The position numbers and the translations under genes are program-made. A stretch of 64,000 nt of DNA from Staphylococcus sp. CAG:324 (lineage in GTDB: Bacteria > Bacillota_I > Bacilli_A > ML615J-28 > CAG-313), in the NCBI GenBank assembly GCA_000433035.1, contig FR890815.1:21800-85799 (forward strand), given 5' to 3'. This document shows positions 34,185-64,000 of the stretch, one piece after another. The notes under the pieces were generated by a model that saw nothing but the letters and a program-made list of their open reading frames with translations, did no database searches and had not been told where the DNA came from. Each line of letters begins with the position of its first letter. Within the stretch, counting starts at the first letter, position 1.

Positions 34185-34196
34185 GAGAAGGCTATT

Positions 34197-34427
34197 ATGA
34201 GAAAAACATTATTAGATATTTTAAATGATGTAAAATCAGGAATTGATTATGAAAAAGAACAACATCTAGTTAGTGAACAAATTTTAACTAGTATGGAAAT
34301 TGTAATGCTTATTATGAAAATCTCTGATGAATTTGATATTACAATTTCACCGCTTGATATTGTACCAGAGAATTTTGAGTCACTAGATGCTATTTTAAAA
34401 CTGATTAACAAAATTCAAGAAGAATAA
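34197..34427 (+). CDS. dltC: D-alanyl carrier protein
   Basis: 76 aa. Phosphopantetheine-attachment serine context LTSMEIVMLI. Confidence 0.75.
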   Translation: MRKTLLDILNDVKSGIDYEKEQHLVSEQILTSMEIVMLIMKISDEFDITISPLDIVPENFESLDAILKLINKIQEE

Positions 34428-34428
34428 T

Positions 34429-40519: not shown

Positions 40520-40532
40520 AAGGAGGGAAAAG

Positions 40533-41744: not shown

Positions 41745-41745
41745 A

Positions 41746-43443: not shown

Positions 43444-43511
43444 AATACATAGTTGATATATAGGTGTTAATAGCAGTCACCAAAAATTTTATATAAATAA
43501 GGAGAAAAGGA

Positions 43512-43991
43512 ATGGAAAAATCATTAAAAAATAAAAAAGGTTTTACATTAACCGAATTGATTGTTGTCATTGCTATCATTGGAATTCTTGCGGCAGTGTT
43601 AATTCCATCAATTACAAGTTATATTAGAAATGCAAAAGAATCTGCAGCCATTCAAGATGCAAGCGCAATGTATCAAGAATTAATTGCAGAGGTTAATGTT
43701 ACAGATGATATTTATGAAACTTTAACTACAAATAAATATTATATTGTTGAAACCGATGGGGGATATTATGTTTTATTAGAAAATGGTTCATGTAATGTTT
43801 CACCATTAAAGGATAATAGTGTAGTTGATGCCGCAAGTGCTGCAACTGAATTCAATATAGAAGGAGTGAGTACTTTTTTTGTTCTAAGAAAAGTAAATGA
43901 AGCATACCGCGTTTTGGAACTTTCAAAAGAAAATACAACTTGGACAGAATCACAAACTCCAATTTATCCAACTCAAACACAGACAGAATAA
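43512..43991 (+). CDS. Type IV major pilin candidate
   Basis: RBS AAGGAGAAAAGG. Class III signal KKG|FTLTELIVVIAIIGILAAVLIPS. 159 aa. Confidence 0.75.
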   Translation: MEKSLKNKKGFTLTELIVVIAIIGILAAVLIPSITSYIRNAKESAAIQDASAMYQELIAEVNVTDDIYETLTTNKYYIVETDGGYYVLLENGSCNVSPLKDNSVVDAASAATEFNIEGVSTFFVLRKVNEAYRVLELSKENTTWTESQTPIYPTQTQTE

Positions 43992-44010
43992 AGTAGATGA
44001 GGATGAATAT

Positions 44011-47679: not shown

Positions 47680-49746
47680 ATGAATATAAAAAAATGTATT
47701 TTTATCATTTCAGTTTTATTGCTATGCTTTTTATCATCCTGTAATAATAAACAAAATGTAAGGAAAGAAACAATGTATTATGATGTCCATTTTAATACCA
47801 ATGGGGGAAGTGAAATTGCGTCTATCAAAGTAGAGGAAGGAAAAACAATTCAAAAACCAAGTGCTCCCCAAAAGTTAGGATATTATTTTGTTGGTTGGTA
47901 TTATGATTTTGAATGTACCATTTTATACAATTTTGATACCAAAATGAATAGAAATATGACTTTATATGCCGCATGGGAAACAATGCCGATTAGTATAATT
48001 GTCAATCTGGATAATCAAAATAGTGAAAAGCAAAATCTAAATTATCAAGATACAATTGCCAATCTAAACGTTCCAAATAAAAAGGGATATCGATTTGTAG
48101 GATATTATTTTGATGAAAAATTGACACAAAAAATAGAGAGTGATTATTGTTTTTTACAAGATAGTACAATTTGGTGCAAATGGGAAATTGTAAAGTATGA
48201 AATTGAGATAGTGATTGATGAAACAACCAAACAAACACAATTTGTTGAGTATGGTTCTACTATAAAGAATTTACAACAACCATCTAAAGAAAATCACATA
48301 TTTAATGGTTTTTATTTAGATAGTGATTGTAAAAATCCCATTAATGAAGAAAATTTAATTGATAAAAATTTAACTATCTATGTGAAGTGGATAGATATCC
48401 ATGCTATTCCATATAAAGTAGTCTATAAGGGTGAAAATATTACGGATGATAAGTATAGCATAATTGAAACAAATGTTTTATATGGTAGTTTAAATGAAGA
48501 GGTGGTAGCACCAATAAAAACTTATGAAGGATTAGAAGTGATAAGTAGTGATGTCAAAGGACAGATTGTGTTAGATGGCTCTTTGGTACTTGAGGTGCTA
48601 TATCGAAGAAAGACTTATGAGGTTACATATATTATTCATGGAGAAGAATATGAGAAAGTCACCGATTTAAAATACAATACGAAGTATAAGTTGATAGATA
48701 ATGTAATGCTGAAGGGATATATTTTTAGAGGTTGGTATGTTGATGACCAATTTAAAAAAGTGGCCTCATTAAATCAAATACCTAGTCATGATACAATTGT
48801 TTATGGTAAATTAGAACCAATTACTGTTGGAAGTAGTGGTCTTTCTTATGTTTTAAATCCTTCCAAGACCGGTTATATTATAAGTAGCTATACGGGAACA
48901 GAAACAGAAATTATAATTCCTAATGGCTATAATTGTTTACCTGTTGTGGCAATTGATTGCTATTTTGATAGTGAGAATATCCAAAAAATTACGATAGGTA
49001 AAAATATTCAAGAAATAAAAGAAGATGCTTTTATTCGCTGTCTTCATTTAGAAACCATTTGGGTTGAAAGTGAAAATGCGAAATATTATAGTGAAGATGG
49101 TGTTTTGTATGATAAAAGTAGAAATAGTTTAAAAGTTTATCCATTAGGAAAAAAGGATACCTCCTTTTATATTCCATCAAATATATTGGTATTAGAGCGT
49201 TTTTGTTTTCATGCGAATTCCTATTTAGAAAATTTAATTATAAATGATAATCTAACAACCATTCATAGTGAAGCATTAAGGGGTTGTACAAATTTAAAAA
49301 CAATTTCCATTGGTAAAGGAGTTAGTTTTATTAGTGATACGTGGGTCAATGCATGTTATCATTTAGAAATGATTTATGTGGATTTAGACAATCCATTTTA
49401 TAAAGATCAAAATGGTGTTTTATTTGACAGTAGTGGAGAAAGTTTACTTCACTTTCCCGCATCTAATAGCCAAACTTTTTATGTGATTGATCATAATGTC
49501 AAAAAAATTAACTATCATGCCTTTGATTCTTGTCTACAACTACAATATGTTGTAATTCCAACTAGTGTTGATGTAATAGAATATCAAGCTTTTGTCGATG
49601 CTTCTTTTACCATTTATTTTGAAGGATTTCAAATACCCAAAAATTGGCATCCCTATGCAATTGAACATACTTTTGAATTAATTTTAAAACCAAATTGGCA
49701 AGAGTTGAATCCAATCCCCTATAAAATTGTAGGAGGTATAGAGTGA
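47680..49746 (+). CDS. Surface lipoprotein with Listeria-Bacteroides (Flg_new) repeats and C-terminal BspA-type leucine-rich repeats
   Basis: Lipobox FLSSC. Four GYxFxGWYxD...W repeats. C-terminal LRRs (ITIGKNIQEIKEDAFIRCLHLETIWV, TISIGKGVSFISDTWVNAC). Confidence 0.8.
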   Translation: MNIKKCIFIISVLLLCFLSSCNNKQNVRKETMYYDVHFNTNGGSEIASIKVEEGKTIQKPSAPQKLGYYFVGWYYDFECTILYNFDTKMNRNMTLYAAWETMPISIIVNLDNQNSEKQNLNYQDTIANLNVPNKKGYRFVGYYFDEKLTQKIESDYCFLQDSTIWCKWEIVKYEIEIVIDETTKQTQFVEYGSTIKNLQQPSKENHIFNGFYLDSDCKNPINEENLIDKNLTIYVKWIDIHAIPYKVVYKGENITDDKYSIIETNVLYGSLNEEVVAPIKTYEGLEVISSDVKGQIVLDGSLVLEVLYRRKTYEVTYIIHGEEYEKVTDLKYNTKYKLIDNVMLKGYIFRGWYVDDQFKKVASLNQIPSHDTIVYGKLEPITVGSSGLSYVLNPSKTGYIISSYTGTETEIIIPNGYNCLPVVAIDCYFDSENIQKITIGKNIQEIKEDAFIRCLHLETIWVESENAKYYSEDGVLYDKSRNSLKVYPLGKKDTSFYIPSNILVLERFCFHANSYLENLIINDNLTTIHSEALRGCTNLKTISIGKGVSFISDTWVNACYHLEMIYVDLDNPFYKDQNGVLFDSSGESLLHFPASNSQTFYVIDHNVKKINYHAFDSCLQLQYVVIPTSVDVIEYQAFVDASFTIYFEGFQIPKNWHPYAIEHTFELILKPNWQELNPIPYKIVGGIE

Positions 49747-52700
49747 AAAAGAAAAATGTTGTATATATAATAGGTATTGTATTGTTTATATCGTTCATTG
49801 CTATTGATGTTTTTAAAGTTAAAGAAAAAGGCGGTCTGTTTAGTATTTTTAATTTTGAAGAAACCAGTGAAAAAAAACAAATAGAAAATACTTTAACTGA
49901 AATTGAAATCAATGAAAAATTAAATGGTGAAAAAATTATGTATTTAGGTGATACGCTGCAACTAACTTTAAAGGCAAATATCGTTACAAATTTGAATGCT
50001 TGGAATTATAACTGGTTGAGTACTGACCAAAGTATTGCCTCAGTATCAACAACAGGTAGTGTATATGGGAAAAAAATAGGTGAAACAACAATTAGAGTAA
50101 CGAATAAAAATGATGCCAATCTTTATGATATTGTAAAAATTAAGGTTATTGAAAGAAACAACAAATTAGAATTCTCGAACGAGTATCAACAAAAATTGCA
50201 ATTAATAAAAGGAGAAATAAAAAAACTTGATATTCATATAGGCGGGAGTGTGGCTTTAGGTAAACTTGAATGGATATCTAGTGATGAAAAGATTTGTACA
50301 GTTCAGGATGGTTATCTTTATGCTAAAGAAAATGGTCAAGTAACCATTACAGTAAAAAGTTTAGTAGATAGTAGATATTTTGATAGTATAAATGTTGAAA
50401 TATATAATGTATTAGATAAAGTTGAAATTGCTGACGATATTTCTATTCATGCAATATATATTAATAATAAAGAAATAAATGGCAGTATGTCGGATTATGA
50501 TATATATGTTGGGGATACAATCACCATCAATTCATCTTGTAATACTTCTAGTAATGCAATGGTAAATTTTTCTTTACAGACAGATACTATATCTTTTAAA
50601 AGTACAGAACAATATGTTGCAACAGTTAATTGCAATCGCGTTGGTAAAGCAGTCATTGATATTTCTAGTAAGTATAATCATTTATTAAACAAGACTTTAG
50701 AATTTGAGATCAAACCTCGAGAAGTGGATAATCTCACATTAAAAAATCCTACCTTACAAAACGTAGAAAATGGTTGGATATATGAAATGCATGAAAGAGA
50801 TGCTGTTTTTCTTGAAGTATTAGGATCAAATGAAGTATTAGATCAAGATGATATAATTGTAGAGATTGCAAATCAGGATATTGCTATAGTGAATAATGGA
50901 TATTTCATTGCTAAGCAAGTTGGAGAAACGCAAGTTACAATAAAATACCGATATGATGAGAACCAAAAGATTAGTTTTACTCTTTTTGTTAGTGAGAATA
51001 CCAATCAAAAAATTGAATATATAGCCATTGAACAGCCTACATTAAATGATAAACCCTTTGCTTTAAATACATATCAAAAAAATAATGTTACAGTATTAGA
51101 TACAATCAGTTTTTATATTGTTGTAACTCCTTATATTTATGCCCAAAGTGATAATTATTTAATTTATGCAACTAATCCTGATGTTGCATCTTGTACAACT
51201 ACTTACAACAATCATCAATATATTGTAAAAATTAATTTTCTAGAAATAGGGAATACCCAAATTATTATTCAATTTTTTGATAATCTAGAACAAGAAATTA
51301 TTTTAGATTTTCATGTCGAGAATATGATTTTTGATCTATCTGCTAAAGCAGCTCTTGAAATGGAGGTTGGAAAAACATATAGTTTTTTCACTACGATTAC
51401 AAACTCATTATCCAAAAAATTAAATTATACTTATACATCATCCAATCCTCAATCAGTTATCATCGGAAGTAATGGGGATATGATGGCAATTGGTGAGGGG
51501 ACAGCAGATGTTTGTGTAACAGTAGATGATGGGAAGACAGTTAAATCCAAAACCCTTACTATTCATGTTAAACAAAATTATATAGAATATCAACCAGTGA
51601 CGCAAATGAGTTATACAACATACTTAAAAGAAGATGATCATTATGTTGAAGTTGATTTTTCAACCCGAATGTTAAATGTTTTTCAAAACGCATATATGAG
51701 CATAAATGTCATGCCAAATTTTAATAATGCTAATAATTATCAAATTATAACTAGCAATCCAGATATTCTATCTATTACGTATAGTAACAATATGTATCAA
51801 CTTTATGCTTTAAGTGCAGGTATTGCAACAATTTATATTAAAAATTATGAAAATAGTGATTTAGATCTTTCTTTTGAGATTAAAGTATGTGAAGTATTGC
51901 CAAAATATGTAATAAGTATATTAGAAAATAATGTTTTATCATTTGATGAATATCAAAAAATTAATTTAAATGTTGATCCAAATGCAACATTTTCAAAAGT
52001 TTCTTATCGCTTTTCCACTCCTAATGTCATTAAAATTATCAATAACACAATCATTCCCTTACATGCAGGAAAAACGACTGTTATTATTGAAGTAGATGAT
52101 CAAGATGATGCAACCTCAAATTATTATTTTTCTTTTCCTGTTGAGGTTTTACCAAATACTAAAATTGGTTTTATGAAATATTCAACGTTAGAAATAATTA
52201 GTTTTTGTTTATTTCATATCATTATTTATGGGCTACTAGGAGTATATTTTTGGTTATTATTTCAAAACTTGCAAATGAAAAAAATATTAACCATTACGGC
52301 TATTGTTGTTATTCCTCTTGCCATATGTTGTTTGCCAGAAGTATTAAAATTAGAAGATAGCAATAAAAGTATCATTATGATATCTATGGGACTCAATAGC
52401 ATATGTTGCGGTGCTGCCATTGTTTTGACATATTTTATAATGAAATGTAAAGGAAAGAAAAAAATGAAAATGAGTAAATATATAATTCTTATTTTAAGTT
52501 TTTTAATGATACTGACGATAACTTCTTGTAAAAAAGAACAAGATAGGATAGAAGATAATTATAATTTTATTTTAAATGTTGAGAAGCAAAATGCTAAAAT
52601 AGCAGAACTTGGGAAAACCATTACGAATCAACAATTAATATATTTACAAGAAGATAGTTCAACATTAATTTATGTGAAATATAATTTTACAGAAAATATG

Positions 52701-52907
52701 TCAACACAAAAAATCATATATCGCTTTTTCAATGATTTAGATGAGTATAGATTGTTTTTTAATCAATATGATAATTTTTTAGATGGTAACTTTTTAGAAG
52801 TAAATGAAGAAATCTTAATGATAGCAACCACATATCAATATATTGATAAAAAAAGTTTTAGTCAATTATATGATGTCATTCATCATCAGTATGTTATAAT
52901 TGAATAG
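49743..52907 (+). CDS. Large Big_2 (bacterial Ig-like group 2) repeat surface protein with a C-terminal multi-TM segment and an embedded lipoprotein-like module
   Basis: GTG start after GGAGG. N-terminal signal anchor. At least 6 Big_2-like repeats, then about 4 TM helices. In-frame MKMSKYIILILSFLMILTITSC at 52464. Confidence 0.7.
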   Translation: MKKKNVVYIIGIVLFISFIAIDVFKVKEKGGLFSIFNFEETSEKKQIENTLTEIEINEKLNGEKIMYLGDTLQLTLKANIVTNLNAWNYNWLSTDQSIASVSTTGSVYGKKIGETTIRVTNKNDANLYDIVKIKVIERNNKLEFSNEYQQKLQLIKGEIKKLDIHIGGSVALGKLEWISSDEKICTVQDGYLYAKENGQVTITVKSLVDSRYFDSINVEIYNVLDKVEIADDISIHAIYINNKEINGSMSDYDIYVGDTITINSSCNTSSNAMVNFSLQTDTISFKSTEQYVATVNCNRVGKAVIDISSKYNHLLNKTLEFEIKPREVDNLTLKNPTLQNVENGWIYEMHERDAVFLEVLGSNEVLDQDDIIVEIANQDIAIVNNGYFIAKQVGETQVTIKYRYDENQKISFTLFVSENTNQKIEYIAIEQPTLNDKPFALNTYQKNNVTVLDTISFYIVVTPYIYAQSDNYLIYATNPDVASCTTTYNNHQYIVKINFLEIGNTQIIIQFFDNLEQEIILDFHVENMIFDLSAKAALEMEVGKTYSFFTTITNSLSKKLNYTYTSSNPQSVIIGSNGDMMAIGEGTADVCVTVDDGKTVKSKTLTIHVKQNYIEYQPVTQMSYTTYLKEDDHYVEVDFSTRMLNVFQNAYMSINVMPNFNNANNYQIITSNPDILSITYSNNMYQLYALSAGIATIYIKNYENSDLDLSFEIKVCEVLPKYVISILENNVLSFDEYQKINLNVDPNATFSKVSYRFSTPNVIKIINNTIIPLHAGKTTVIIEVDDQDDATSNYYFSFPVEVLPNTKIGFMKYSTLEIISFCLFHIIIYGLLGVYFWLLFQNLQMKKILTITAIVVIPLAICCLPEVLKLEDSNKSIIMISMGLNSICCGAAIVLTYFIMKCKGKKKMKMSKYIILILSFLMILTITSCKKEQDRIEDNYNFILNVEKQNAKIAELGKTITNQQLIYLQEDSSTLIYVKYNFTENMSTQKIIYRFFNDLDEYRLFFNQYDNFLDGNFLEVNEEILMIATTYQYIDKKSFSQLYDVIHHQYVIIE

Positions 52908-52946: not shown

Positions 52947-53148
52947 AAAAAAAGGCATATTTTTATAAAAAACATACTATTATTTTATGTAAAATGTTCC
53001 AAAACATTGATAAAATCGATTTTAACATTTATATTATATTGACAAACTATCTTAAAAATAGTATAATTATAACATATCTTGTCGATTATTTAGATATTAA
53101 AATGGATGAGAAAAAGAATTATTTAGAATTATGTAAGGAGAATTTAAA

Positions 53149-53766
53149 ATGAAAAGAAAGACGTTAACGTTAACTTTATGCTTATTATCATGTTTAGCAT
53201 TGATTGGTGTTGGTTTTGCGGCATGGATCATTACTTCTGACACTAAACAAGAAATAGAAGGTAACATTTCAGTTGATACCGTAACAGATAATAGATTGAG
53301 TGTTGAGACAAGTTGGAAAGATGATAAAAATGCCATTGTTTTTGGTTGGAAAACTGGTGAGTATACCTATTCTTGGTTAAAGAATACAGATCCAACTTAT
53401 GCAGAAAATCTAACAGTTACTCTTGTTGTGAATGTAAAAGATAGTGGGGGTAGTCCTATTGATGCCCAAACTGTTAATGCAACAATTACGGGAGATGACG
53501 CATATACTACTGCTGTATCTAGCAATTTAGTTAATGCTTTGCCTACATTAACAGCTCAAAAGCAAGAAACTGGTGTTTATCATATTACAATTACTCTCTC
53601 ATGGGGTAGTGCATTTAATAATCAAAACCCTATGGAATATTATAATAGTCAAGATTATACATCAGAGTTAGCAGATCAAGCTAAAACCAATTTAACCGCT
53701 CTTGAGGCATTGAAAACTAGTAAATTTACTGTTACAGTAACGGTAACACCAACTGAGGCAGAATAA
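53149..53766 (+). CDS. Secreted protein with a SipW-cognate-type (TasA/camelysin-class) signal peptide
   Basis: RBS GGAGAA. N-terminal K/R followed by a hydrophobic core and GVGFAAWIITSD, compared with the TasA 'GGGTWAAF' context. Shares the C-terminal WGSAFNNQNPMEYY motif with the next gene. Confidence 0.6.
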   Translation: MKRKTLTLTLCLLSCLALIGVGFAAWIITSDTKQEIEGNISVDTVTDNRLSVETSWKDDKNAIVFGWKTGEYTYSWLKNTDPTYAENLTVTLVVNVKDSGGSPIDAQTVNATITGDDAYTTAVSSNLVNALPTLTAQKQETGVYHITITLSWGSAFNNQNPMEYYNSQDYTSELADQAKTNLTALEALKTSKFTVTVTVTPTEAE

Positions 53767-53793: not shown

Positions 53794-54507
53794 ATGGCTA
53801 AATTAACAAAAAATTCTTATAAAAGAAAAGTTATTTTATTCGGTGTTTTATTATTTATGTCTATTGCTTTGATATCAACAGGTTTTGCGGCATGGATAAT
53901 GTCAACGAATGCAAATTATGAAGATGATGGAAATGTGAGTGTTGGTACTGTTACAGATGGATCAATAAAGTTGACGGATGTTGCGCTATCAACCGATTCA
54001 ATCAAATTTGAACCATTAGAAGAAGATACAACAGGTAGAGTTAGAAATGATGGAACTAATTTTGAATCATTACAGATAGTAGTAACAGGAAAAGTATCTC
54101 CTAGAGATATTTTAGGTGAACTTACGATTGAACTGCAAATGGAAGAAAAAGTGAAAACAGCTCTACAAGCTGCTGCTGATAAAAATTATATTATTTTACC
54201 AGAATGCGCAAATTCGGCAGTGGATTTAAAAACTTTGGGTGGTGCATGTACTGAAAATGAAGAGGGTGGATACGATTTTACTTATACGATTGAATTTAAA
54301 TGGGGAAGTTTTTTCCAAAATTTAAATCCAGGTGAGTATTATGACGAAAATGAAACGGGTACAAAAGTATCAGACGAAGAAGTGAAAAAAATTCTAAAAG
54401 AGTTAAGAGCTACTATTTATGGATATGACGTCGATGCATCAGATGAAATAATCAATGCAGCGGTTGGTCCTACTTTTAAAGTAGTAATCAATGCTAGGGC
54501 AAATTAA
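53794..54507 (+). CDS. Paralogous secreted protein with a SipW-cognate-type signal peptide
   Basis: STGFAAWIMSTN signal context and the shared C-terminal WGSFFQNLNPGEYY motif. Confidence 0.6.
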   Translation: MAKLTKNSYKRKVILFGVLLFMSIALISTGFAAWIMSTNANYEDDGNVSVGTVTDGSIKLTDVALSTDSIKFEPLEEDTTGRVRNDGTNFESLQIVVTGKVSPRDILGELTIELQMEEKVKTALQAAADKNYIILPECANSAVDLKTLGGACTENEEGGYDFTYTIEFKWGSFFQNLNPGEYYDENETGTKVSDEEVKKILKELRATIYGYDVDASDEIINAAVGPTFKVVINARAN

Positions 54508-54512: not shown

Positions 54513-55520
54513 ATGTCTTCTGCTGAAATTATTTCCCTCATAGTTACAATCATCGGGGTATTTAGTTTTGCAACAATATTTACGATATTATATCAATCAT
54601 ATGCAACTTCACAAATAAATGAAATTCAGTCTGGAAAAAAAGATCTTGAATTGATCGATGAAGTAATCTATGAAAGACAAGAAAAAATTAAAAAGCGCAA
54701 GATGGTAACAAAGATAGTTAAATCTATTTGTTTCTATCTTGCCTTATTCTTCATTATACCTTTATTTATTTTTTCATTAATTAATCGATTTCAAAATAAT
54801 ATAACAATGATTGGTAATAAAACCATTATGGTTGTTGCCTCAGGCTCAATGAGTAAGAAAAATGACGCAAATGCTTATCTAAATAGTAACAATTTGAACA
54901 ATCAATTTCAAACGTATGATATAATTGTTTTGGAAAAGGTTGAAAATGCATCAGATTTGAACAAATACGATGTTATTGCTTATCGAAATGATCAAGGAAT
55001 CAATGTCATTCATAGAATAATTGAAATAGAAGATGGAAAATATGTAACCCGTGGTGATGCCAATGACGCAAGTGATAAATATCATCCAACTTTTGATGAT
55101 GTAATTGGAAGATATACAGGTAAGAAAATACCTAGTATAGGGATATTTATTATGTTTTTACAGTCATATGCTGGTATCATCACGATTATTTCATTAATTT
55201 ATTGTTTAATCATGATTGATAAAATTTCTAATAAAATAAATACAGCTCAAAAAAGAAGAATTGAACAATTAGAAGAAGCAATTGATTATACCGATGAATT
55301 AGAAGTTGAAAAAATAAAGGCAGAATATGTTGAGACAATTTATTATAAGGGATATGCTTATCATTTTAATGAAACAGGGTTTGTTGAAAAAACTAAGATG
55401 AAAGATGGTCCCTATTTAGAAAAATCGAATAAGACAATGATTAAAGAAGTGCTTAATTTAAAGACTTCAGAAAAAATTGCCGAAGAAGTCGTAATTGAAA
55501 ACGATAATCAAGGAGAATAA
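54513..55520 (+). CDS. sipW: Signal peptidase I of the archaeal/eukaryal SipW type, with N- and C-terminal extensions (335 aa)
   Basis: Catalytic-Ser box VVASGSM. IHRI and TRGDANDASD match SipW THRI/TKGDNN. One TM before the catalytic domain, one after, plus a charged tail of about 100 aa. Confidence 0.75.
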   Translation: MSSAEIISLIVTIIGVFSFATIFTILYQSYATSQINEIQSGKKDLELIDEVIYERQEKIKKRKMVTKIVKSICFYLALFFIIPLFIFSLINRFQNNITMIGNKTIMVVASGSMSKKNDANAYLNSNNLNNQFQTYDIIVLEKVENASDLNKYDVIAYRNDQGINVIHRIIEIEDGKYVTRGDANDASDKYHPTFDDVIGRYTGKKIPSIGIFIMFLQSYAGIITIISLIYCLIMIDKISNKINTAQKRRIEQLEEAIDYTDELEVEKIKAEYVETIYYKGYAYHFNETGFVEKTKMKDGPYLEKSNKTMIKEVLNLKTSEKIAEEVVIENDNQGE

Positions 55521-55521: not shown

Positions 55522-57321
55522 ATGATGAACAAACCTTATTTTACAAGAAAAAATTTAATATTTATATCATTAGCAATATTTTATTCATTTTTATTGTTAT
55601 TTACAGGCCTTTGTATAGAAGGATCACATTCTTTTGCTAATAAAAATAATCCACTAGCACAAGTGGCGCAAGCACTTCATTTTAAATCAATTAGTTGTGG
55701 TGTAACGGGCTATGTTGCTTTGATACTTGTAGCAATCTATGTTAGTGTTTTTGTCACTATCTTTTTATATGAGAAAAGGTTTGCTATTGTCAATAACAAA
55801 AAACCATTTAGTTTGAAAATGATTTTAATATATATCAGTTCTTTTATTTTATGTGCGTTATTATCAGTAGGTGTGGGAATTCTCATTCAAAGACCATTAG
55901 ATGCTGAAAACATTGGTAACATTATGCTTTTTATTTGGCAAACTATTTTATTGACAACTTGTATATATGTTTTATTATTTTTATTTATTGGTGGTATGTT
56001 AATGTTTGTAGTCAACTATATTTTAGTTGATAAACCATTTAGAGCATATGATAAAAATGAACCGATTACTTTTGATGAGGAAGATACTAAAATTGACGTC
56101 ACTACTAATTTTGATGCAACACTAAATGCAACGGCATCTTCTATTGCTGGCGGACAGATTACAACCGCTACTTCAAGTATGCCAAATGAAAGTATTGTTC
56201 GCACAGTTGAAAAGTTAGATGATCGGGAAAAAGTTTTTCCTGCTTTATCTATGATGGATACTACTTATGATGGTTATGCAATAGAGAAAATAGATAGTGA
56301 TACATATAGTTTAGAAGAAATTAGTATTCGCTTTCGCAATTATCTTGCAAAAGAAGAAAAACTATATTTTGATCTAGATACCATTAGATTTTTTGTCAGT
56401 GGATTTGCGGCATCACACTTTATGATTTTAGAAGGGTTAAGTGGTACTGGTAAATCAAGTTTGCCTAGATATTTTGCAAAATTTATTCATGCTGATGTTT
56501 TATTTATTCCTGTTCAAGCAACATATCGTGATAAGACAAATCTAATTGGATATTTTAATGATTTTTCAAAAACTTATACCGAAACAGAGTTTTTGATTTC
56601 ATTATATCATGCCAATTATAATCCCGATCAAATTCATTTTTTTGTTTTAGATGAAATGAATATTTCTAGGGTTGAGTATTATTTTGCTGACTTTTTATCA
56701 GTATTAGAATATCCAAAAGAACTTTGGAAATTAAAAATTATGCAACTTCCGTATGGATTTGTACCACCTGCTAAACTAGAAGATGGTTTTATTACAATAC
56801 CTGAAAATTCCTATTTTGTTGGTACCGCAAATAAAGATGATTCAACCTTTACAATTACTGATAAAGTGTATGATAGAGCAATAACAATTGATTTTGATGA
56901 TCGCAATATTCCTTTTGAAGTAAAAGAAGAAGTGAGTAAAATTCATATTAGCAAAACACATCTGCAACATTTATATCAAGAGGCATTGAATAATCCTAGT
57001 TATCAGATGACAAAAGGTGATTATGATAAATTTCAAACTGTTTGTGATTTTATTTATGACAAGTTTGATATTACTTTTGGTAATCGTATTTTGAATCAAA
57101 TTGCAAAACTCGTGCCTGTTTTTGTTGCATCCGGTGGAACAAAAGAAGATGCTATTGATTTTATTGTTTCACGAAAAATAATTAGTAAAATTGAAGGTCG
57201 TTTTGAAGAATATGTTAAGGGTGCTTTGAAAGATTTATTAACTTTAATAACGAAAACATACGGAATAGATGTTTTATATCGTAGTGAAAAAGTAATTCAA
57301 AGTTTAATAAGAAGGTTATAA
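55522..57321 (+). CDS. Membrane-anchored McrB-family (AAA_5) NTPase
   Basis: ATG 1 nt after the sipW stop, with an AAGGAGAA RBS. About 190-aa N-terminal domain with 4-5 TM helices. Walker A LEGLSGTGKSSLP, Walker B FFVLDEMN, and the McrB-like FVGTANKDDS ... DKVYDRAITIDF segment. Confidence 0.65.
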   Translation: MMNKPYFTRKNLIFISLAIFYSFLLLFTGLCIEGSHSFANKNNPLAQVAQALHFKSISCGVTGYVALILVAIYVSVFVTIFLYEKRFAIVNNKKPFSLKMILIYISSFILCALLSVGVGILIQRPLDAENIGNIMLFIWQTILLTTCIYVLLFLFIGGMLMFVVNYILVDKPFRAYDKNEPITFDEEDTKIDVTTNFDATLNATASSIAGGQITTATSSMPNESIVRTVEKLDDREKVFPALSMMDTTYDGYAIEKIDSDTYSLEEISIRFRNYLAKEEKLYFDLDTIRFFVSGFAASHFMILEGLSGTGKSSLPRYFAKFIHADVLFIPVQATYRDKTNLIGYFNDFSKTYTETEFLISLYHANYNPDQIHFFVLDEMNISRVEYYFADFLSVLEYPKELWKLKIMQLPYGFVPPAKLEDGFITIPENSYFVGTANKDDSTFTITDKVYDRAITIDFDDRNIPFEVKEEVSKIHISKTHLQHLYQEALNNPSYQMTKGDYDKFQTVCDFIYDKFDITFGNRILNQIAKLVPVFVASGGTKEDAIDFIVSRKIISKIEGRFEEYVKGALKDLLTLITKTYGIDVLYRSEKVIQSLIRRL

Positions 57322-57325
57322 TTTT

Positions 57326-58591
57326 ATGAAACTCATCGAAGAGTTAAAACTAAAAGAAGTTATTAAAAAAATAAGAAAATATAAAGATGAACATCGAAGT
57401 ATTAAATTTTTCTATCGAGATTTAGATAATTTAAAACTTCCATCTTTGCAAGATTTCTCTTTTAAGAAAGATGATGAATTCTTTGATGAAGTGAATTTTA
57501 TTCTAAGCGTGATAGTTTCTATTATTGCTCATCCTAGTCTTTCTAATAAAGGAGAAGACATTATTGTTAGATCAGAACTAGCAGGGCATATTTCATCTGA
57601 TTCTTTTCAACAAGTATGTAAAGATAATAGACTTTGGAAAGAAAAAAATGATGAAATGGTACCTGAATATGTGCATCACTATCAATATACTGATGATATT
57701 CAAATTTATGAAAATATTTTTATCGGAATGCTTATCAATCTTATACGTTTGGAGTTAAATAAATATAGTGAATTTTATGCATCACTGATTCCTTCGGTAG
57801 AATCAAATAATGATAAATATTTAGAAAATAAGATTGCGGAAAAGATGATTACTAAAATTGAAGCATTACAAAGAAAACAAATGTTTATTCAAAATACTTC
57901 TTTTTATAAAGAAATTTCTAAGTGCAATCTTCATCTTACAAAAGTTTTACCTACTAACATTTTATTAAAAAATCGTTTATACAATTATTGTTATAAATTT
58001 TATCTTCAATTTATTAAAAGTGAAGATGAAAATAGATTACTTGAAGAACTTACTATCTATTATAAATATGTGATATTAAAATGTTTCAAAGAAAAAAACT
58101 TTGTATTAGATAATACGAAAAGTCAAAACTATAATTGTTTATCTTTTATATATAAAGATTATAGACTAAAACTTTCTCTAGAAGAAAACATACCATGTAT
58201 TAATCTTGATATTTCATATGGTTCAATTCCTGCTAAACATCATTTAATCATTAATACGGAAAATAAACTTCAGATGAATCAATTTTTTGATTACAACAGT
58301 ATATCTAATGATTTGATTACAATTTGGCGTATATATGATTTAGAAAATGCAAATAAGCCATATAATAATCAACTAGTTTCTGAAAAAAAATTAGTGTCAT
58401 TTTGGCTGAATTCTAAGTTGCAAGAGATTTTTGCAAAAAAGGAATTATATATGAAATATTGTCCTGTTTGTAAAAGTAAAAATATAGAAAATAATCAAAA
58501 ACTATATACATGTTGTGATTGTGGAAGTATGTATACATTTAAAGACGTCAATCAGGTTGATACCATTTGGTTTTTAAAATTAAGGAGGTAG
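57326..58591 (+). CDS. Hypothetical partner protein with a C-terminal Zn-ribbon (CPVC...CCDCGSMY). Candidate McrC-like component.
   Basis: 421 aa, directly downstream of the McrB-like gene as in McrBC pairs. No PD-(D/E)xK signature could be confirmed by eye. Confidence 0.45.
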   Translation: MKLIEELKLKEVIKKIRKYKDEHRSIKFFYRDLDNLKLPSLQDFSFKKDDEFFDEVNFILSVIVSIIAHPSLSNKGEDIIVRSELAGHISSDSFQQVCKDNRLWKEKNDEMVPEYVHHYQYTDDIQIYENIFIGMLINLIRLELNKYSEFYASLIPSVESNNDKYLENKIAEKMITKIEALQRKQMFIQNTSFYKEISKCNLHLTKVLPTNILLKNRLYNYCYKFYLQFIKSEDENRLLEELTIYYKYVILKCFKEKNFVLDNTKSQNYNCLSFIYKDYRLKLSLEENIPCINLDISYGSIPAKHHLIINTENKLQMNQFFDYNSISNDLITIWRIYDLENANKPYNNQLVSEKKLVSFWLNSKLQEIFAKKELYMKYCPVCKSKNIENNQKLYTCCDCGSMYTFKDVNQVDTIWFLKLRR

Positions 58592-58596: not shown

Positions 58597-59355
58597 ATGG
58601 AAGAAAACAAACTTTCTCAAGAAGAACAAAAAGCCACAATTATGATCAATGACCTCTATAAATCCTATGGTGATAAAGATGTTTTAACGGGGTTAAATTT
58701 AGAAGTTTATGAAAAAGAGTTATTTGGTTTTATTGGTAGAAATGGTATTGGAAAATCAACAACAATTGATTGTATGATTGGTTCTAAAAAATTTTCTAAA
58801 GGCGAGGTATATATCTCAGGTTTTGATATAAAAAAATATCCTCTTCAAGCAAAGCAAACGTTTGGTTATGTTGCTAGTGAGCCAACTTGTTATGAAGAAA
58901 TGACAGGATATGATTACTTAGAATTTATTGCTAGTATATATGGTTTAGGTGAAGAAGATTTTAATCACAATTACAAATATTTATGTACAAGACTTCAATT
59001 CAATTTAGAAGAATTGTCAAATCCCATTTCTGATTATTCTCATGGTATGAAACAAAAATTATGTTTAGTTGCAAGTTTGTTGCATAGTCCTAAAATTTGG
59101 ATTTTAGATGAACCTACAGTTGGTCTTGATATTATGGCTGTGGAAGAATTGAAAAAAATGATGAGAGAGTATGCAAATCATGGGAATACCGTTTTTGTTA
59201 CGAGCCATAATATTGAATTAGTATCTAAAATTTGTGATAGAGTAGCGATTATTAACAATGGCAAAGTGGTGGAATTATTTGATTTGAATAAAAATCCTAA
59301 TAAAAGATTACAACTTGCTAAAATCTTTATTGAAACGTATGGAGGACGAGAATGA
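58597..59355 (+). CDS. ABC transporter ATP-binding protein
   Basis: Start at the ATG at 58597 after AAGGAGG. Walker A GRNGIGKST, signature YSHGMKQKL, Walker B ILDEPTVGLD. Confidence 0.85.
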   Translation: MEENKLSQEEQKATIMINDLYKSYGDKDVLTGLNLEVYEKELFGFIGRNGIGKSTTIDCMIGSKKFSKGEVYISGFDIKKYPLQAKQTFGYVASEPTCYEEMTGYDYLEFIASIYGLGEEDFNHNYKYLCTRLQFNLEELSNPISDYSHGMKQKLCLVASLLHSPKIWILDEPTVGLDIMAVEELKKMMREYANHGNTVFVTSHNIELVSKICDRVAIINNGKVVELFDLNKNPNKRLQLAKIFIETYGGRE

Positions 59356-60944
59356 TTAACCTCCTTGCGAAAGATTTTAAATTGATGTTTGGAAAAGAAA
59401 AAAGTATTGCTAAAAAAATAATTACTATTTTAATAACAATCTTTTTTCTTACTTGTTTTATTGGAATTGAGGTATTTTTGTTTACAACTATTTTGAATAA
59501 AATAGGAAAATTTCATCAAGCACCAATGGCCTTTATGAATGTATTTTTATTTATTATTTCTATTCTTATTACTATTTCTGGAATCTTTAGAGCGATGAAA
59601 CTTTTTTTTAATCAAAAGGATATTGAACAATTATCCACAAAACCAGTTAGTAATAGTGCAATTATTTTATCTAAATTAGTCTTTCTATTCATTACTCATT
59701 ATGCAATTAGTATTTTATTTATCTATCCATTATTTATTGCATATGGTATTCACTATGCAATGACATTAAAATTTTATTATCTAGCCCTTTTTTATCCCAT
59801 TCTTTCTTTCTTTTTTGAGATGGGAGTTGCTCTTCTTTTTATCTATCCTTTTTGGCTTTTAAAAAATTATTTAAACAAGCATCTATTAGTAAGATTTCTT
59901 TTAATCGTAATATTGCTTGTGATTGGATGTTATTTTTACGCAAAAGTTTTGAATCTGTTTATTGAAATGATTGCGGGGGGAAATATAAATCATTTATTTA
60001 CCCAAACAATGATGGATAAACTCATCAATTTTAGAAAATATGAGATTCCAATTAATTTTTTAACAGATATTTTTATTCAAAATAGATATAGTAGTATATT
60101 ACCATACTTAGGTATATCATTGGGTATTTTTATTCTTGGTTTAAGTATTACTATTTTTACTTTTAGTTATGTAAGAAATATTTTTATTTCTAATAAGAAA
60201 AAACATAGAATAAAAGATTACAAAAAACAATCTATCCAAAAAGCTTTAATCAAAAAAGAAGTTATACTTTTAACTAAAAATCAAAATTATACTTTATCTT
60301 TTACAGGGCTTTTGATTGTTCAACCCTTTTTAGTATATTTGGTAATCAAAGCTTTAAATACAATTTTTACTTCTGGTATTTTTGCTTATTATATTTCAAT
60401 TGTACCATCTTTTATTCCATTATTAGATATTTTAATTTTAATGTTATTTACCGTTATTATCAATCAGGGAGCAAGTCAATATATTCAAATGGAGAAAAAG
60501 ACGATTAAAGTGATGAAAACAATACCAGTTTTACCTCGAATTCAATTGTTGATAAAAGTAAGTATACCTTTGCTACTTTCTTTTACATCCCTTTTTATCA
60601 CTTTACTTGTCTTATTGGTGTTAAAAACGATTACGTTTATCACTTTCATTTTTGCTTTTGTATTAGTAAGTTTATTATTATTCATTTATGATGTGATTTC
60701 TTTAAAGGAAGAATTGAATATTAGAAATCATAAACCAAGAAGGTCAATTGTTTCTAATCTATACTCATATATTTTACCAATTATATATTTTATAGTGACA
60801 ACAATTCTTTCATATTTTGGTATGTCGATATATATTGCCTATTTGATAGGATGTATTGTATTTGTCATACTAGGAATACCACACGTGTTTCATTTGAAAA
60901 AAAATATGGAATCTTTATTTATGGATTTGGATGTGATCAATTAA
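59352..60944 (+). CDS. Polytopic ABC-transporter permease-like membrane protein
   Basis: Overlaps the ABC ATPase stop (ATGA). About 12 predicted TM helices in two bundles. Confidence 0.6.
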   Translation: MINLLAKDFKLMFGKEKSIAKKIITILITIFFLTCFIGIEVFLFTTILNKIGKFHQAPMAFMNVFLFIISILITISGIFRAMKLFFNQKDIEQLSTKPVSNSAIILSKLVFLFITHYAISILFIYPLFIAYGIHYAMTLKFYYLALFYPILSFFFEMGVALLFIYPFWLLKNYLNKHLLVRFLLIVILLVIGCYFYAKVLNLFIEMIAGGNINHLFTQTMMDKLINFRKYEIPINFLTDIFIQNRYSSILPYLGISLGIFILGLSITIFTFSYVRNIFISNKKKHRIKDYKKQSIQKALIKKEVILLTKNQNYTLSFTGLLIVQPFLVYLVIKALNTIFTSGIFAYYISIVPSFIPLLDILILMLFTVIINQGASQYIQMEKKTIKVMKTIPVLPRIQLLIKVSIPLLLSFTSLFITLLVLLVLKTITFITFIFAFVLVSLLLFIYDVISLKEELNIRNHKPRRSIVSNLYSYILPIIYFIVTTILSYFGMSIYIAYLIGCIVFVILGIPHVFHLKKNMESLFMDLDVIN

Positions 60945-60945: not shown

Positions 60946-63417
60946 ATGACAAAGAAAAACTTAATTATTTTATTGTTAATTCCCTTTTTAATTGCTTTGC
61001 TTGGTGTTGTAACGATTAATACGACCTTTCATTTCATTGATAATGATATTATTGCAATTCAATGGGATTATGATGATACCGAGGCTTTCAAGTTACAAGA
61101 TAATTTATATTTGTTAGAAGCGGTTGGTGTCAATCAAAAAAACTATCCAGCAGGGGCTGGTAATACACTTGTATGGAGTATTAGAAATCGTAATATAGAA
61201 GATGACAATGTGTATGGTGAAATTGTTAAACAAGATCAGCACTATTATTTAAAAACACTTGCGTGTGGAGAGGTGATTATCACATGTTCAAATGAAAAGG
61301 GTACAATTTTTAAATCCATGCATGCGATCATTTATGAAAATGGAGCCATTCTTATTCAAACGAAAATTAGAGGTTCTCAAAACAATATTGATCAAACAAT
61401 TTACTATGGTGAATATGATTTAGAAAATCAAAATAAAATAAAGGCAAGTGTTGATTTAGAAATTACAGCCGTACCAAAGAGTATCTCTTCGCTACTTAGA
61501 ATTGAAAACCAAACGGATAATATTGAAATTGATTTAATGAATCATACATTAGAAATTAAAGATGCTGGTTTTGCTTCATTTACCATTAGTTGTGGTGATG
61601 AAAATATTGCGAAAAATGCTACTTATTCCTTTGAAGTAGTTGAAAATGGAGTGAATGTATATAGTTATGATGATCTATTGAATTGTTCTAATTATTCAAA
61701 TACTGGTGAAATTATTGTTCTTCGAAAATCATTTGAATCACTAGAAAATGCTTATCAGATGAGTGCTAGTGGAGAGGTTCTCTTAGAAGATGGCAAGCCA
61801 GTTTTAAAAGAAAATAATGTTGAATGTTTTGGTAACTATAATCCAGTCACTAAAAAATTTAATTTTAAAAATGAAATCTATCGTTTTGTTACAACCTATA
61901 ATAAAAATTATATTGATCAGTGGAATCAAAGTGTTGCAACAAGTGGCGGTAGCAATTACATATCAACTGAAATTTTAGTAGGTCTTCATATTCAAAAAAA
62001 CTTTTATGGGAATGGATATACGATTAATATGCATAATCTGACTTATCCAACTGAAATAATTGAAGTAGATAGTGGTGATGGAACGTTTGTATCTATTCCT
62101 CATTTAGCTAAAGATGATTTATTTAGAGGTCCTCTTCCTTTTTATGCTTTGGGTGACCATAATAATATGCCATTGGTTGAAGCTTTTGGTCAAGATAATA
62201 TTGGAATGTATGTGGAAGGCAATGATATTTTAATCAATGATGTCTATGTACGAAATTGTGATTTTGGTAATAGATTGGCTAATCTTGATACAGTGGGAAC
62301 AGTTTTAGAAGTGAGTGGAAATAATATAAAAATTATGAATGCTAGACTTGCGAATGGTAAAAATGTTTTACGTAGTTTTTCTTCCATGCATGTAGAAGTA
62401 ATCAATAGTATGTTAAGTTATGCAAGAAACTTTTTGGTTTCGCTTGGTACGAATGAGTACATTCTTATTGATGGCAGTAAAACGTATGATTTTACCGATT
62501 TAAATGGGAATTTGACATCACTTCAAATAGAAGATTATTTTCAAACGAATGGGGTTGGTGACAATATTTTAAATGCCTATTTACAAGCCAATTTTAGTTC
62601 AAAAGAGAATATGAAAAAAGCTCTTTTGTCTATGCAAAGAGCGCTTAGTAATGAAAAGTTAATTCAAGATGAAGAGAATAATCCTATTTACAAAGGTAGT
62701 ATGAAAATAAAAGATACTTTCTTTTATCAAAGTGGAATTGCGGCAATCTCTCTTGAATCTATGTTTAATGGACCTTTCTTATATTCGAATATTCCTAGTG
62801 TAATTTGGGAAGTATTAGGAATGCTTGAAACACAAGAAGGTATACCTCTTGATAGTCTTAAAACAAGTAAGATTGCGGGGTTATCTTATCCAGTTGAATT
62901 AGAAATTTGTGGTAATACGAAATTTTATGATTATAAAGCTACGGATAGTGTGGATATTAGTGGATTAATTACCGAAAATATATCAAAGTTTGCTCAATCC
63001 ATTGATCCAAGTTATGAGGGAATAATAGATATTGATAAAATATTTCCAATTAAACAATATTTAATTGACAAGGCCACAACTCAAGGTTCAATTTATACAG
63101 ACAATGGTAAAACATATATAAATTTACCTATTGCGTATTATGGTGGTGGACTTAATTTATCTAAAGTTGAGGTTTCCACTGAGGATATAACGATTCATTT
63201 CAATCGAGAAATTGAAATTGATTTGATTGATAATTATTTAAATTTAGGACAAGGTTCTAATACAGTTGAGATGTTAAAAAATATGATGCTAAAAGCAGTA
63301 ACGGTGGTAACCGGTTATGAACCATTCAAATTTGTATGTATGAAAGGTGATGGTTATTTATATGGAGAAACACCAAAGATTTCTGATTTAATTTTGAATA
63401 ACATAAAAGGAGAATAA
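60946..63417 (+). CDS. Large surface protein with an N-terminal signal anchor and a probable right-handed beta-helix (pectate-lyase-like) repeat region
   Basis: Signal anchor LIILLLIPFLIALLGVV. Repetitive N/G/V-rich segments with the N-x-(L/I/V) periodicity typical of PbH1 repeats. Confidence 0.5.
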   Translation: MTKKNLIILLLIPFLIALLGVVTINTTFHFIDNDIIAIQWDYDDTEAFKLQDNLYLLEAVGVNQKNYPAGAGNTLVWSIRNRNIEDDNVYGEIVKQDQHYYLKTLACGEVIITCSNEKGTIFKSMHAIIYENGAILIQTKIRGSQNNIDQTIYYGEYDLENQNKIKASVDLEITAVPKSISSLLRIENQTDNIEIDLMNHTLEIKDAGFASFTISCGDENIAKNATYSFEVVENGVNVYSYDDLLNCSNYSNTGEIIVLRKSFESLENAYQMSASGEVLLEDGKPVLKENNVECFGNYNPVTKKFNFKNEIYRFVTTYNKNYIDQWNQSVATSGGSNYISTEILVGLHIQKNFYGNGYTINMHNLTYPTEIIEVDSGDGTFVSIPHLAKDDLFRGPLPFYALGDHNNMPLVEAFGQDNIGMYVEGNDILINDVYVRNCDFGNRLANLDTVGTVLEVSGNNIKIMNARLANGKNVLRSFSSMHVEVINSMLSYARNFLVSLGTNEYILIDGSKTYDFTDLNGNLTSLQIEDYFQTNGVGDNILNAYLQANFSSKENMKKALLSMQRALSNEKLIQDEENNPIYKGSMKIKDTFFYQSGIAAISLESMFNGPFLYSNIPSVIWEVLGMLETQEGIPLDSLKTSKIAGLSYPVELEICGNTKFYDYKATDSVDISGLITENISKFAQSIDPSYEGIIDIDKIFPIKQYLIDKATTQGSIYTDNGKTYINLPIAYYGGGLNLSKVEVSTEDITIHFNREIEIDLIDNYLNLGQGSNTVEMLKNMMLKAVTVVTGYEPFKFVCMKGDGYLYGETPKISDLILNNIKGE

Positions 63418-63421: not shown

Positions 63422-64000
63422 ATGAAAAAGAAAATCCTAAATTTAATAACTATGATATTATTATGTTTTGTTTTAGCAGGATGTTCTAGTTTCTTTGGTG
63501 ATAATGAGTCACTACAAATTGAAAATATTCAAGCTGAAAGTTTAGAAAATGGTGACATTAAAATAACAATTACATATGTAAATGAAGTTTTAGATCCAAC
63601 CATTTTTATTGTACCAAAGGGTGATACAGGCTCAACAGGGGTAGGAATTAAAGAAATAATAACGACTAAAAAAGAAGATGGTAGTGGTTCAATTTTAACA
63701 ATTACTTATACGGATGATTCTATTTCACCAACAATTGTGGAAGTAAAAGATGGTGTTTCGGTTAGCAGTATAGATCCTGTTGTCAATCCTGAAACTGGAG
63801 AAATAGTAATTTATATTAGATATAGTGATGGGACGAGTTCAGAACCGATGGTACTTCCAAAAGGAGAAGATGGTAAAGATGGCATTTCGGTGATCGGCAT
63901 TGACCAAAGAATCAATAGAGATTTTAGTGTGACTTTGACTTTTAAAATGTCGCAAGGTGAAGATGTCATTGTGAATATTCCTGCACCTCAACAAGGAGAA
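63422..64000 (+). CDS. Lipoprotein (partial at window end) with repeated beta-rich modules and short Gly-X-Y-like triplets
   Basis: Lipobox VLAGCSS. Repeated TITY...DxSISPTIVEV modules. PKGDTGSTG and PKGEDGKDG motifs. Confidence 0.5.
   Translation, partial: MKKKILNLITMILLCFVLAGCSSFFGDNESLQIENIQAESLENGDIKITITYVNEVLDPTIFIVPKGDTGSTGVGIKEIITTKKEDGSGSILTITYTDDSISPTIVEVKDGVSVSSIDPVVNPETGEIVIYIRYSDGTSSEPMVLPKGEDGKDGISVIGIDQRINRDFSVTLTFKMSQGEDVIVNIPAPQQGE

Follow-up and report, generated by a model that had tools for sequence, protein, structure and literature searches.

Known systems related to genes A and B

McrBC is the textbook GTP-driven restriction enzyme, in which the DUF2357 bundle and beta finger of McrC enter the McrB ring and stimulate GTP hydrolysis. 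Membrane-tethered McrBC relatives linked to signal peptidases are already in print as a prediction, with an NxD motif in the McrB homolog and the name CoCoPALM (Bell et al. 2024, PMC11090510). Here, a pair of McrBC-like genes was analyzed in a 64,000-nucleotide (nt) stretch of Staphylococcus sp. CAG:324 (assembly GCA_000433035.1, contig FR890815.1, positions 21,800 to 85,799 of the forward strand), which is called the window and is numbered from its first letter. Gene A (55522–57321, + strand, 599 amino acids (aa)) encodes an McrB-like NTPase with an N-terminal membrane domain, and gene B (57326–58591, + strand, 421 aa) encodes its McrC-like partner. We estimate a probability of roughly 55% that the two genes are an McrBC-derived NTPase module that was taken over by the cell envelope as a motor or switch for SipW-dependent surface-fibre assembly. 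The identity of the parts is highly probable, and our confidence in the specific mechanism lies well below that.

CoCoPALM systems were described as NxD GTPases fused to an FtsB-like single transmembrane (TM) helix and a coiled coil, tied to signal peptidases and connected to 'pilus assembly'. Coiled coils are usually found in both the McrB and the McrC homologs. The description is one paragraph of predictions, with details deferred to a future paper (PMC11090510). No follow-up on CoCoPALM was found in the literature, and the supplementary text files searched for PMC11090510 do not mention the name. Beyond Bell et al., no literature was found that links McrB-like proteins to SipW or describes a polytopic clade.

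Canonical McrBC of E. coli and T. gammatolerans shares with genes A and B the AAA+ GTPase core, the Walker A and B motifs, the Nx(x)D motif, and a DUF2357 partner directly downstream in the same gene order. However, gene A has a membrane anchor and no DNA-reader domain, and it carries NxD instead of NxxD. Gene B has no conserved PD-(D/E)xK motif, and the genomic context consists of secretion and surface proteins rather than restriction-modification genes. NxD GTPases are likewise present in the CoCoNuT systems (CnuB/CnuC), whose McrC homologs often carry zinc ribbons and have lost or inactivated the nuclease (PMC11090510). These systems differ from the window pair in their long coiled-coil N-termini, the absence of TM helices, their association with HEPN or other nucleases, and their placement in a separate clade of our tree.

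The tapA-sipW-tasA operon of B. subtilis and the sipW-bsaABC operon of C. perfringens resemble the locus in their dedicated SipW-type peptidase and several secreted paralogs with an aromatic-rich cleavage-site motif (PMC9245690, PMC11580942). In contrast to the window, an NTPase is absent from these characterized operons, and the window's secreted proteins have no detectable TasA match. FtsK/SpoIIIE and FtsH are laid out like gene A: TM helices at the N-terminus lead through a linker to a ring NTPase in the cytoplasm. The likeness is one of analogy only; their ATPase families are unrelated to gene A, a protease or gamma domain is absent from gene A, and homology was not detected.

Gene A is an McrB-like GTPase of the NxD clade

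The best start codon of gene A is the ATG at 55522, with AAGGAG on its 5' side, and the product is 100% identical to database protein P0001. An earlier note on this DNA had proposed both reading frames and quoted several motifs. The frames lie where it had placed them, and all of the motifs are present in the translation: Walker A GLSGTGKSS (aa 305–313; 56434–56457), Walker B FFVLDEMN (aa 373–380, with D377/E378 as the acidic residues), GTANKDDS (aa 434–441; N437–D440 at 56830–56841) and DKVYDRAITIDF. All are within the AAA+ domain (56362–57321). Among 45 membrane-type homologs, the Walker A residues G305, S307, G308, G310 and K311 were invariant together with D377, N437, D439 and R452, and E378 was nearly invariant. 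The same conservation of Walker and NxD residues was seen in a 24-sequence ATPase alignment. Position 440 is D, or E in one sequence (L033), which gives the consensus GTAN(K/N)D(D/E)ST.

In the NxD branch, a major one among McrB proteins as defined by Bell et al. (eLife 2024, PMC11090510), a strictly conserved NxD stands where others have NxxD, and the next residue is usually D or E. Because the invariant N437/D439 with D/E at position 440 equals this definition, the sequence of gene A fits the NxD clade of McrB-like GTPases.

Database searches agreed with this placement. The single gene A sequence gave only sub-threshold matches to AAA_5 and AAA_22 in Pfam; in the PDB its top match was E. coli McrB (E = 1e-3), followed by T. 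gammatolerans McrB. A full-length gene A profile was discarded, since its TM region drew compositional matches to G-protein-coupled receptors and LMBD1, and the ATPase domain was therefore searched alone. This profile of 24 sequences, down to 41% identity and with AAA_5 matched by 19 of its members, retrieved E. coli McrB from the PDB at E = 4.3e-8 and nothing further below E = 0.7. MoxR, CbbQ and RavA chains were absent at E ≤ 1. Thus, the McrB-family assignment made in the earlier note was confirmed, and placement among MoxR/CbbQ-type chaperones, which it had named as the finding that would overturn it, was rejected. The observed features exceed chance by far. Gene A is an NxD-clade McrB-like AAA+ GTPase, with GTPase activity predicted from its motifs.

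The membrane domain and linker of gene A

The N-terminal membrane domain (aa 1–171; 55522–56034) contains four hydrophobic segments at aa 9–35, 56–85, 95–127 and 133–171 in a 19-residue Kyte-Doolittle scan. Lysine and arginine residues number 11 in the N-terminal tail, loop 2 and the stretch after the fourth TM segment, compared to 3 in loops 1 and 3. Because of this skew, the sequence fits a topology of four TM helices with both ends, and hence the ATPase, in the cytoplasm. Five helices would make the NTPase face the cell exterior. The polytopic membrane domain claimed earlier was therefore upheld, whereas its count of four to five helices is replaced by four from hydropathy and charge pattern.

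The membrane domain is followed by a cytoplasmic linker (aa 172–280; 56035–56361) that varies among homologs. Its first half is rich in S, T, D and E, the first 60 or so residues are of low complexity, and the homolog consensus is mostly undefined until about aa 238. From F239 onward, the sequence is conserved as part of the region preceding Walker A. No coiled-coil heptads were evident in the linker as judged by eye, without a predictor.

Among the 50 best clusters of relatives, about 45 have a multi-helix N-terminal membrane domain of at least three segments. The remainder are N-terminally truncated fragments without a membrane domain and one shorter single-segment protein.

Gene B is an McrC homolog without conserved nuclease residues

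Gene B has no hydrophobic segment in the Kyte-Doolittle scan. It consists of a bundle of helices bearing a beta 'finger' (aa ~40–230), a beta-rich region (aa ~235–375) and a Zn ribbon (aa 379–399; 58460–58522). The ribbon is formed by C379-P-V-C382 and C396-C-D-C399, and its four cysteines are invariant in 29 homologs that are 35–68% identical, so the ribbon reported earlier is supported. F416, just beyond the ribbon, is also invariant. Within the N-terminal half, the invariant residues are R82, W104, P113, E114, Y128-E-N130, P209-T-N-I-L213 and K215. The stretch from aa 235 to 375 has just two invariant residues, L307 and W334, and therefore no D...(D/E)xK triad is conserved. A nuclease family of Pfam was not matched by any of the 37 gene B relatives scanned.

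The ribbon had been taken as the only recognizable feature of this protein, which proved too narrow. DUF2357 (PF09823), the domain with which the N-terminus of McrC engages McrB and activates it (PMC11090510), was matched by 14 of the 29 gene B homologs, with a best E value of 6.7e-9. The gene B of the window itself has no significant Pfam match, with DUF2357 below threshold. Counterparts from the sister clade and from stand-alone pairs (both described below) score 28–47 bits for this domain against a gathering cut-off of 23.3, and precomputed PF09823 matches are present for many gene B homologs.

The AlphaFold2 (AF2) model of gene B (pLDDT, the predicted local distance difference test, 85.6) shows a helical bundle with a beta hairpin at aa 73–124, a beta-rich domain and a terminal ribbon. 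In Foldseek searches with this model, McrC-type chains ranked first, third and fourth, as weak matches (E = 0.01–0.1). A gene B profile against PDB sequences gave only Zn-ribbon matches (ribosomal L37Ae and RPA70) at E > 0.2. A phmmer similarity to TapA/YqxM (E about 1) was treated as chance. Gene B is an McrC homolog that has kept the DUF2357 bundle and beta finger and has lost the catalytic residues of the PD-(D/E)xK nuclease.

Conserved linkage to SipW-type peptidases and secreted proteins

Relatives of gene A at E ≤ 1e-3 fall into 7,723 clusters at 50% identity. In a scan of one genome per species, at least 582 relatives were detected, and the best 80 loci were kept. The open reading frames (ORFs) were called in all kept loci and searched with profiles from the window's proteins. 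The source names encountered for members were in every case 'hypothetical protein' or 'hypothetical surface-anchored protein'.

The genomic context is the decisive evidence for the role of the pair. A sipW-like gene lies within 6 kb on the same strand in 59 of the 63 loci that offer 2.5 kb or more of upstream and 4.5 kb or more of downstream sequence. It is nearly always adjacent to or overlapping the mcrB-like gene; in most loci the two are 1 nt apart or overlapping. In all 81 loci with 1.5 kb or more of downstream sequence, an McrC-like gene directly follows the McrB-like gene. The earlier note had stated that the pairing would be undermined by a partner without an McrC-like fold and by homologs that never occur together, and the results are the opposite of this. 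Its suggested look for sipW or defence islands beside other homologs gave sipW in these 59 loci and no defence island where the flanks are annotated.

The same gene order was found on unrelated contigs whose gene B homologs are 35–48% identical, so that synteny persists to 35% identity. It starts with two or three proteins of ~210–290 aa, a protein of 233–346 aa in the sipW position and a gene A homolog of ~600 aa. A gene B homolog of ~420 aa, an ATP-binding cassette (ABC) ATPase, a 530-aa permease (12TM_1), a protein of ~800–830 aa and a Flg_new protein follow. The flanks vary between the contigs and include tyrosyl-tRNA synthetase, ribosomal protein L31, a LytTR two-component system and alcohol dehydrogenase. 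Where flanks are annotated by Pfam (L001–L006 and the window's contig), they are housekeeping or surface genes, with no defence genes; Flg_new proteins lie 3' of the cluster in L001–L006.

The loci closest to the window (L001–L055, here type 1) contain essentially the whole nine-gene set, and all nine genes are present in most of them. They are metagenome-assembled genomes labelled Bacilli, Acholeplasmatales, Mollicutes, Christensenella, 'Scatosoma' and Clostridia. The ABC ATPase gene lies ~1.2–1.8 kb 3' of mcrB in nearly all type-1 loci, and the permease is syntenic in 50 loci. A second group (type 2, L061–L086) comprises Collinsella (two of them cultured isolates), Erysipelotrichaceae, Lachnospiraceae and Oscillospiraceae. 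Here, three or four secreted proteins of ~270 aa are followed by sipW, an McrB-like protein of 510–570 aa with one or two TM helices, an McrC-like protein of 550–745 aa and often a second sipW. The ABC module was not present in the L061–L086 loci.

In the two Collinsella isolates (sp. TF11-5AC, L077; AM34-10, L081), the sister operon, which is CoCoPALM-like, spans about 4.9–14.1 kb of the locus. It encodes four secreted proteins with the T(Y/F)AWF motif, sipW, a 2-TM McrB-like protein, a 745-aa McrC-like protein and a second sipW.

The peptidase and its putative substrates in the window

The gene directly 5' of gene A (54513–55520, + strand, 335 aa) encodes a SipW/archaeal-type signal peptidase I. 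It scored 64.2 bits against NCBIfam TIGR02228 (archaeal/SipW-type signal peptidase I; cut-off 51.85). The SipW equivalog model for B. subtilis gave E = 4e-18 and 65.6 bits, under its cut-off of 190. Because TIGR02228 was passed and the equivalog cut-off was missed, the protein is a SipW-type peptidase and not an ortholog of SipW. The motifs SGSM, HRI and GDAND are visible in its sequence. B. subtilis SipW has about 190 aa, and the window's peptidase is thus ~145 aa longer. The excess includes an additional N-terminal TM helix and a charged C-terminal tail of ~100 aa that follows the final TM helix. This tail presumably lies in the cytoplasm, where the McrBC-like module could dock on it.

Two secreted-protein genes precede the peptidase gene. 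Secreted protein 1 (53149–53766, + strand, 205 aa) has an N-terminal signal ending in VGFA-AWIITS, and secreted protein 2 (53794–54507, + strand, 237 aa) has a signal ending in TGFA-AWIMS that is followed by a beta-rich domain. Within the window's clade, these proteins have a basic N-terminus, a hydrophobic stretch and then the near-invariant motif (V/T)GF(A/S)(A/S)W(V/I)(I/M)(S/T); those of the sister clade carry T(Y/F)AWF. In secreted protein 2, S28-T-G-F-A-A-W34 is invariant in 26 homologs. The motif presumably resembles the SipW cleavage region of TasA (GGGTWA|AFND) and CalY.

Related loci contain 2–8 copies of these paralogs or orthologs 5' of sipW. Six GF(A/S)xW paralogs were counted in L026 and L028, and eight in L032. 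The varying number suggests subunit diversification, by analogy with major and minor pilins or variable surface antigens.

The window's secreted proteins matched no Pfam or NCBIfam family. The AF2 model of the 237-aa protein (pLDDT 79) is disordered at aa 27–44 around the predicted cleavage site. When this model was compared to the PDB by Foldseek, no significant match was obtained, and TasA was absent from the top 50. The secreted proteins were not assigned to the TasA/camelysin proteins (TasA, CalY, AbpA), as neither family nor fold matched. The most fitting description is a new protein family, secreted and associated with SipW.

A polytopic clade distinct from CoCoPALM

For 144 cluster representatives, a neighbour-joining tree of the ATPase domain was built; it is rough, being based on BLOSUM distances and rooted at the midpoint. 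The domains sorted into three clades by N-terminal type: long N-termini without TM helices, one or two TM helices, and at least three TM helices, the last including the window. The separation was complete except for P0279, a short protein with a single detected hydrophobic segment inside the third clade. The four-TM N-terminal domain is kept throughout that clade. Soluble relatives of ~700–870 aa, in the clade with long N-termini, probably belong to CoCoNuT, judging from their length and lack of TM helices only.

The clade with one or two TM helices is CoCoPALM-like. The L061–L086 group agrees with the published description, and in L079 an obviously heptad-rich stretch comes after a TM helix. 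CoCoPALM and the window pair are alike in their NxD McrB-like GTPase with TM segments, their DUF2357 McrC homolog and their genomic linkage to signal-peptidase-family genes. However, N-termini with an FtsB-like TM helix and a coiled coil are confined to the sister clade, whereas gene A has four TM helices and a linker that is not coiled by eye. The McrC-like protein of the window has 421 aa and a Zn ribbon, compared to 550–745 aa in the CoCoPALM-like systems, and the window operon has one sipW together with an ABC exporter and a protein of ~820 aa. The ATPase domains of the two clades are 41–44% identical and lie on separate branches. The polytopic ABC-linked clade is therefore distinct from CoCoPALM and undescribed. 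The novelty that the earlier note saw in the configuration holds for this clade; it does not extend to membrane tethering itself, since membrane-tethered NxD McrB proteins with signal peptidases had already been named.

Proposed role and alternative explanations

Because the nuclease is lost, a four-helix anchor is gained and the operon of secreted surface proteins is conserved, drive or control of surface fibres is likelier than restriction. The four-helix anchor and flexible linker, in place of a nucleic-acid reader, would hold the motor ring at the cytoplasmic face of the membrane. Gene A would form a membrane-tethered hexamer that is activated by gene B. NTP hydrolysis may then drive or gate the export, processing, membrane extraction or polymerization of SipW substrates into a surface fibre or matrix. 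Candidate steps are the extraction of cleaved subunits from the membrane, their hand-over to the growing fibre and the timing of cleavage. The role would be pilus-assembly-like rather than DNA restriction.

This reading is supported by the linkage to sipW and secreted proteins, which is kept across two sister clades and several phyla. The sister clade, with one or two TM helices and a coiled coil, is likewise flanked by sipW genes and T(Y/F)AWF secreted proteins, and Bell et al. had tied it independently to 'pilus assembly'. A more specific proposal is tentative and rather doubtful. It holds that gut Firmicutes and Actinobacteria possess an unrecognized class of machine for the NTP-driven assembly of surface fibres, with the polytopic McrB-like GTPase and the nuclease-dead McrC as its engine. 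The exapted restriction motor would work with a SipW-type peptidase, extracting cleaved subunits from the membrane and polymerizing them, analogous to PilB/PilC/PilD of type IV pili and unrelated to them in evolution.

Several observations weigh against a role in fibre assembly. In 4 of the 63 adequately flanked loci, sipW was not detected; one of these, L075, has kept the secreted proteins. In L047 (8116–12494), L056 (3436–6380) and L057, the 4-TM McrB and McrC pair stands alone, with neither sipW, secreted proteins nor the ABC module. The pair is therefore able to exist without secretion genes. The neighbours in L047 and L056 look like housekeeping genes from their translated N-termini, for example a tRNA-synthetase-like ORF. 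The structural likeness of gene B to McrC is weak by Foldseek (E = 0.01–0.1). As the secreted proteins match neither TasA nor a known pilin, we infer fibre formation from the context, and the roles of all members are predictions from sequence and genomic position. To our knowledge, SipW/TasA systems require no dedicated NTPase. As a separate observation, the McrB-like gene of L047 is present as a tandem duplicate.

A membrane-associated anti-phage or abortive-infection system is an unlikely alternative. Such a system would sense nucleic acid, for example through the Zn ribbon, and would use the four-helix domain as a membrane-disrupting effector, with the neighbouring genes being accessory or unrelated. 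In favour of this role are the family's descent from Type IV restriction systems, the frequent use of transmembrane effectors in defence and the two-gene versions without sipW (L047, L056, L057). The best match of gene A in PADLOC was also a candidate defence protein, PDC-M26A (E = 7e-39). However, PDC-M26A matches the three N-terminal classes about equally and covers only the ATPase core in the TM-bearing classes; it is thus not specific to, and not informative on, the polytopic clade. No literature on PDC-M26 was found beyond Bell et al. Furthermore, neither a nuclease nor another recognizable effector domain is present, and the annotated flanks are housekeeping or surface genes. A defence island would be variable, whereas the nine genes, among them those for a signal peptidase and secreted proteins, keep their synteny across distant genomes. 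Hardly any relatives occur in viral contigs (1 in 2.9 million contigs, compared to at least 582 in the genome collection), and a phage-borne origin was rejected on this result. The earlier note had offered both membrane-associated defence and fibre or substrate handling as functions; because the synteny with sipW and secreted proteins is conserved, the latter is favoured over the former.

It is quite improbable that the module is purely a regulatory switch or quality-control device, in which the GTPase cycle of A and B gates SipW activity or the timing of subunit release and does no mechanical work. The sipW and gene A reading frames are 1 nt apart or overlapping in most loci, and the ~145 aa by which the peptidase exceeds its core, including the tail after the last TM helix, would offer a site for such control. 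Regulation of the McrB GTPase by McrC in McrBC (PMC6624300) counts in the same direction. On the other side, R452 is invariant, and the strong conservation of pore-facing and arginine-finger-type residues would suit a working motor. Sequence alone does not separate such a switch from the motor model.

Very unlikely is a membrane-anchored translocase of the FtsK/SpoIIIE kind, by which DNA or RNA would pass through or along the membrane, for instance to export extracellular DNA into a matrix of the secreted proteins, with the Zn-ribbon partner loading the substrate: canonical McrB translocates DNA (PMC7680126), gene A has the analogous layout of four TM helices, long linker and motor, the invariant ribbon of gene B could bind nucleic acid, and an ABC exporter and matrix-like proteins are co-encoded, but neither protein has a recognizable nucleic-acid-binding domain except the generic ribbon, and there is no sign of a channel formed by the four helices.

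If the assembly reading is true, a large branch of McrBC has been rewired to the membrane and protein secretion, and a motor from defence would plainly have been exapted for building the cell surface. SipW/TasA-type matrix systems, whose assembly is currently thought to need no dedicated NTPase, would moreover gain a step that depends on energy. The family is large, and its carriers include lineages that are abundant in the human and animal gut, such as RF39/Acholeplasmatales-like Bacilli, Christensenellales-like Clostridia and Collinsella. Since cultured Collinsella isolates carry the sister system, the question is directly testable.

Organization of the operon and neighbouring genes

The G+C content of the window is ~28%, and every gene surrounding genes A and B is on the + strand. 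A candidate operon promoter (53039–53067, + strand; TTGACA-17-TATAAT, 12/12) is the sole perfect match to this consensus within 52.8–64 kb and lies 80 nt 5' of the first secreted-protein gene; the assignment is a sequence match to the consensus only. No credible + strand terminator internal to the operon was found before 63.4 kb.

The genes are tightly packed, with junctions of 1–5 nt or overlaps. The gap between the end of sipW and the start codon of gene A is 1 nt, and the junction of genes A and B is 4 nt. The terminal codons of gene B (AGG AGG TAG) form the Shine-Dalgarno sequence of the gene for the 252-aa ABC transporter ATPase (58597–59355, + strand; Pfam ABC_tran, E = 9e-22). This gene overlaps by 4 nt with that of the polytopic permease (59352–60944, + strand, 530 aa), whose homologs carry PF09847 (12TM_1). 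After 1 nt follows the gene for a protein of 823 aa whose N-terminus bears a TM or signal segment (60946–63417, + strand). The gene is syntenic in 48 loci, where it comes immediately after that of the permease, and its product matched no known domain in a Pfam scan. Only the start of a lipoprotein-like gene (63423–64000, + strand) is within the window; its counterpart in a near-identical contig encodes an Flg_new protein of 366 aa. Genes A and B are tightly packed in the operon and apparently translationally coupled.

Two large surface proteins are encoded directly 5' of the operon (47680–52907). One, of 688 aa, carries both Flg_new and BspA-type LRR_5 repeats. The other, an ORF of 1054 aa, contains Ig-like repeats (Big_2 and HL_N-beta) and is split by gene callers in the near-identical contig into a 911-aa protein and a 147-aa lipoprotein-like protein.

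A type IV pilus/Com-like set (39671–45825) lies ~8 kb 5' on the operon's strand. It consists of a prepilin peptidase A24 (39671–40519), a T2SSF protein (40533–41744), a T2SSE ATPase (41728–43443) and a 642-aa protein with an N_methyl pilin motif (43897–45825). Secretion of BsaC, a protein of the C. perfringens SipW operon, requires type IV pilus genes (PMC11580942). The nearness of this set to the operon may be meaningful; it is not common to the related loci.

Further upstream, a dltA-like AMP-binding enzyme and an MBOAT (dltB-like) gene are located at 32652–35976. They suggest D-alanylation of teichoic acids, and because of these genes a cell wall is probable for the organism, although its G+C content is Mollicutes-like.

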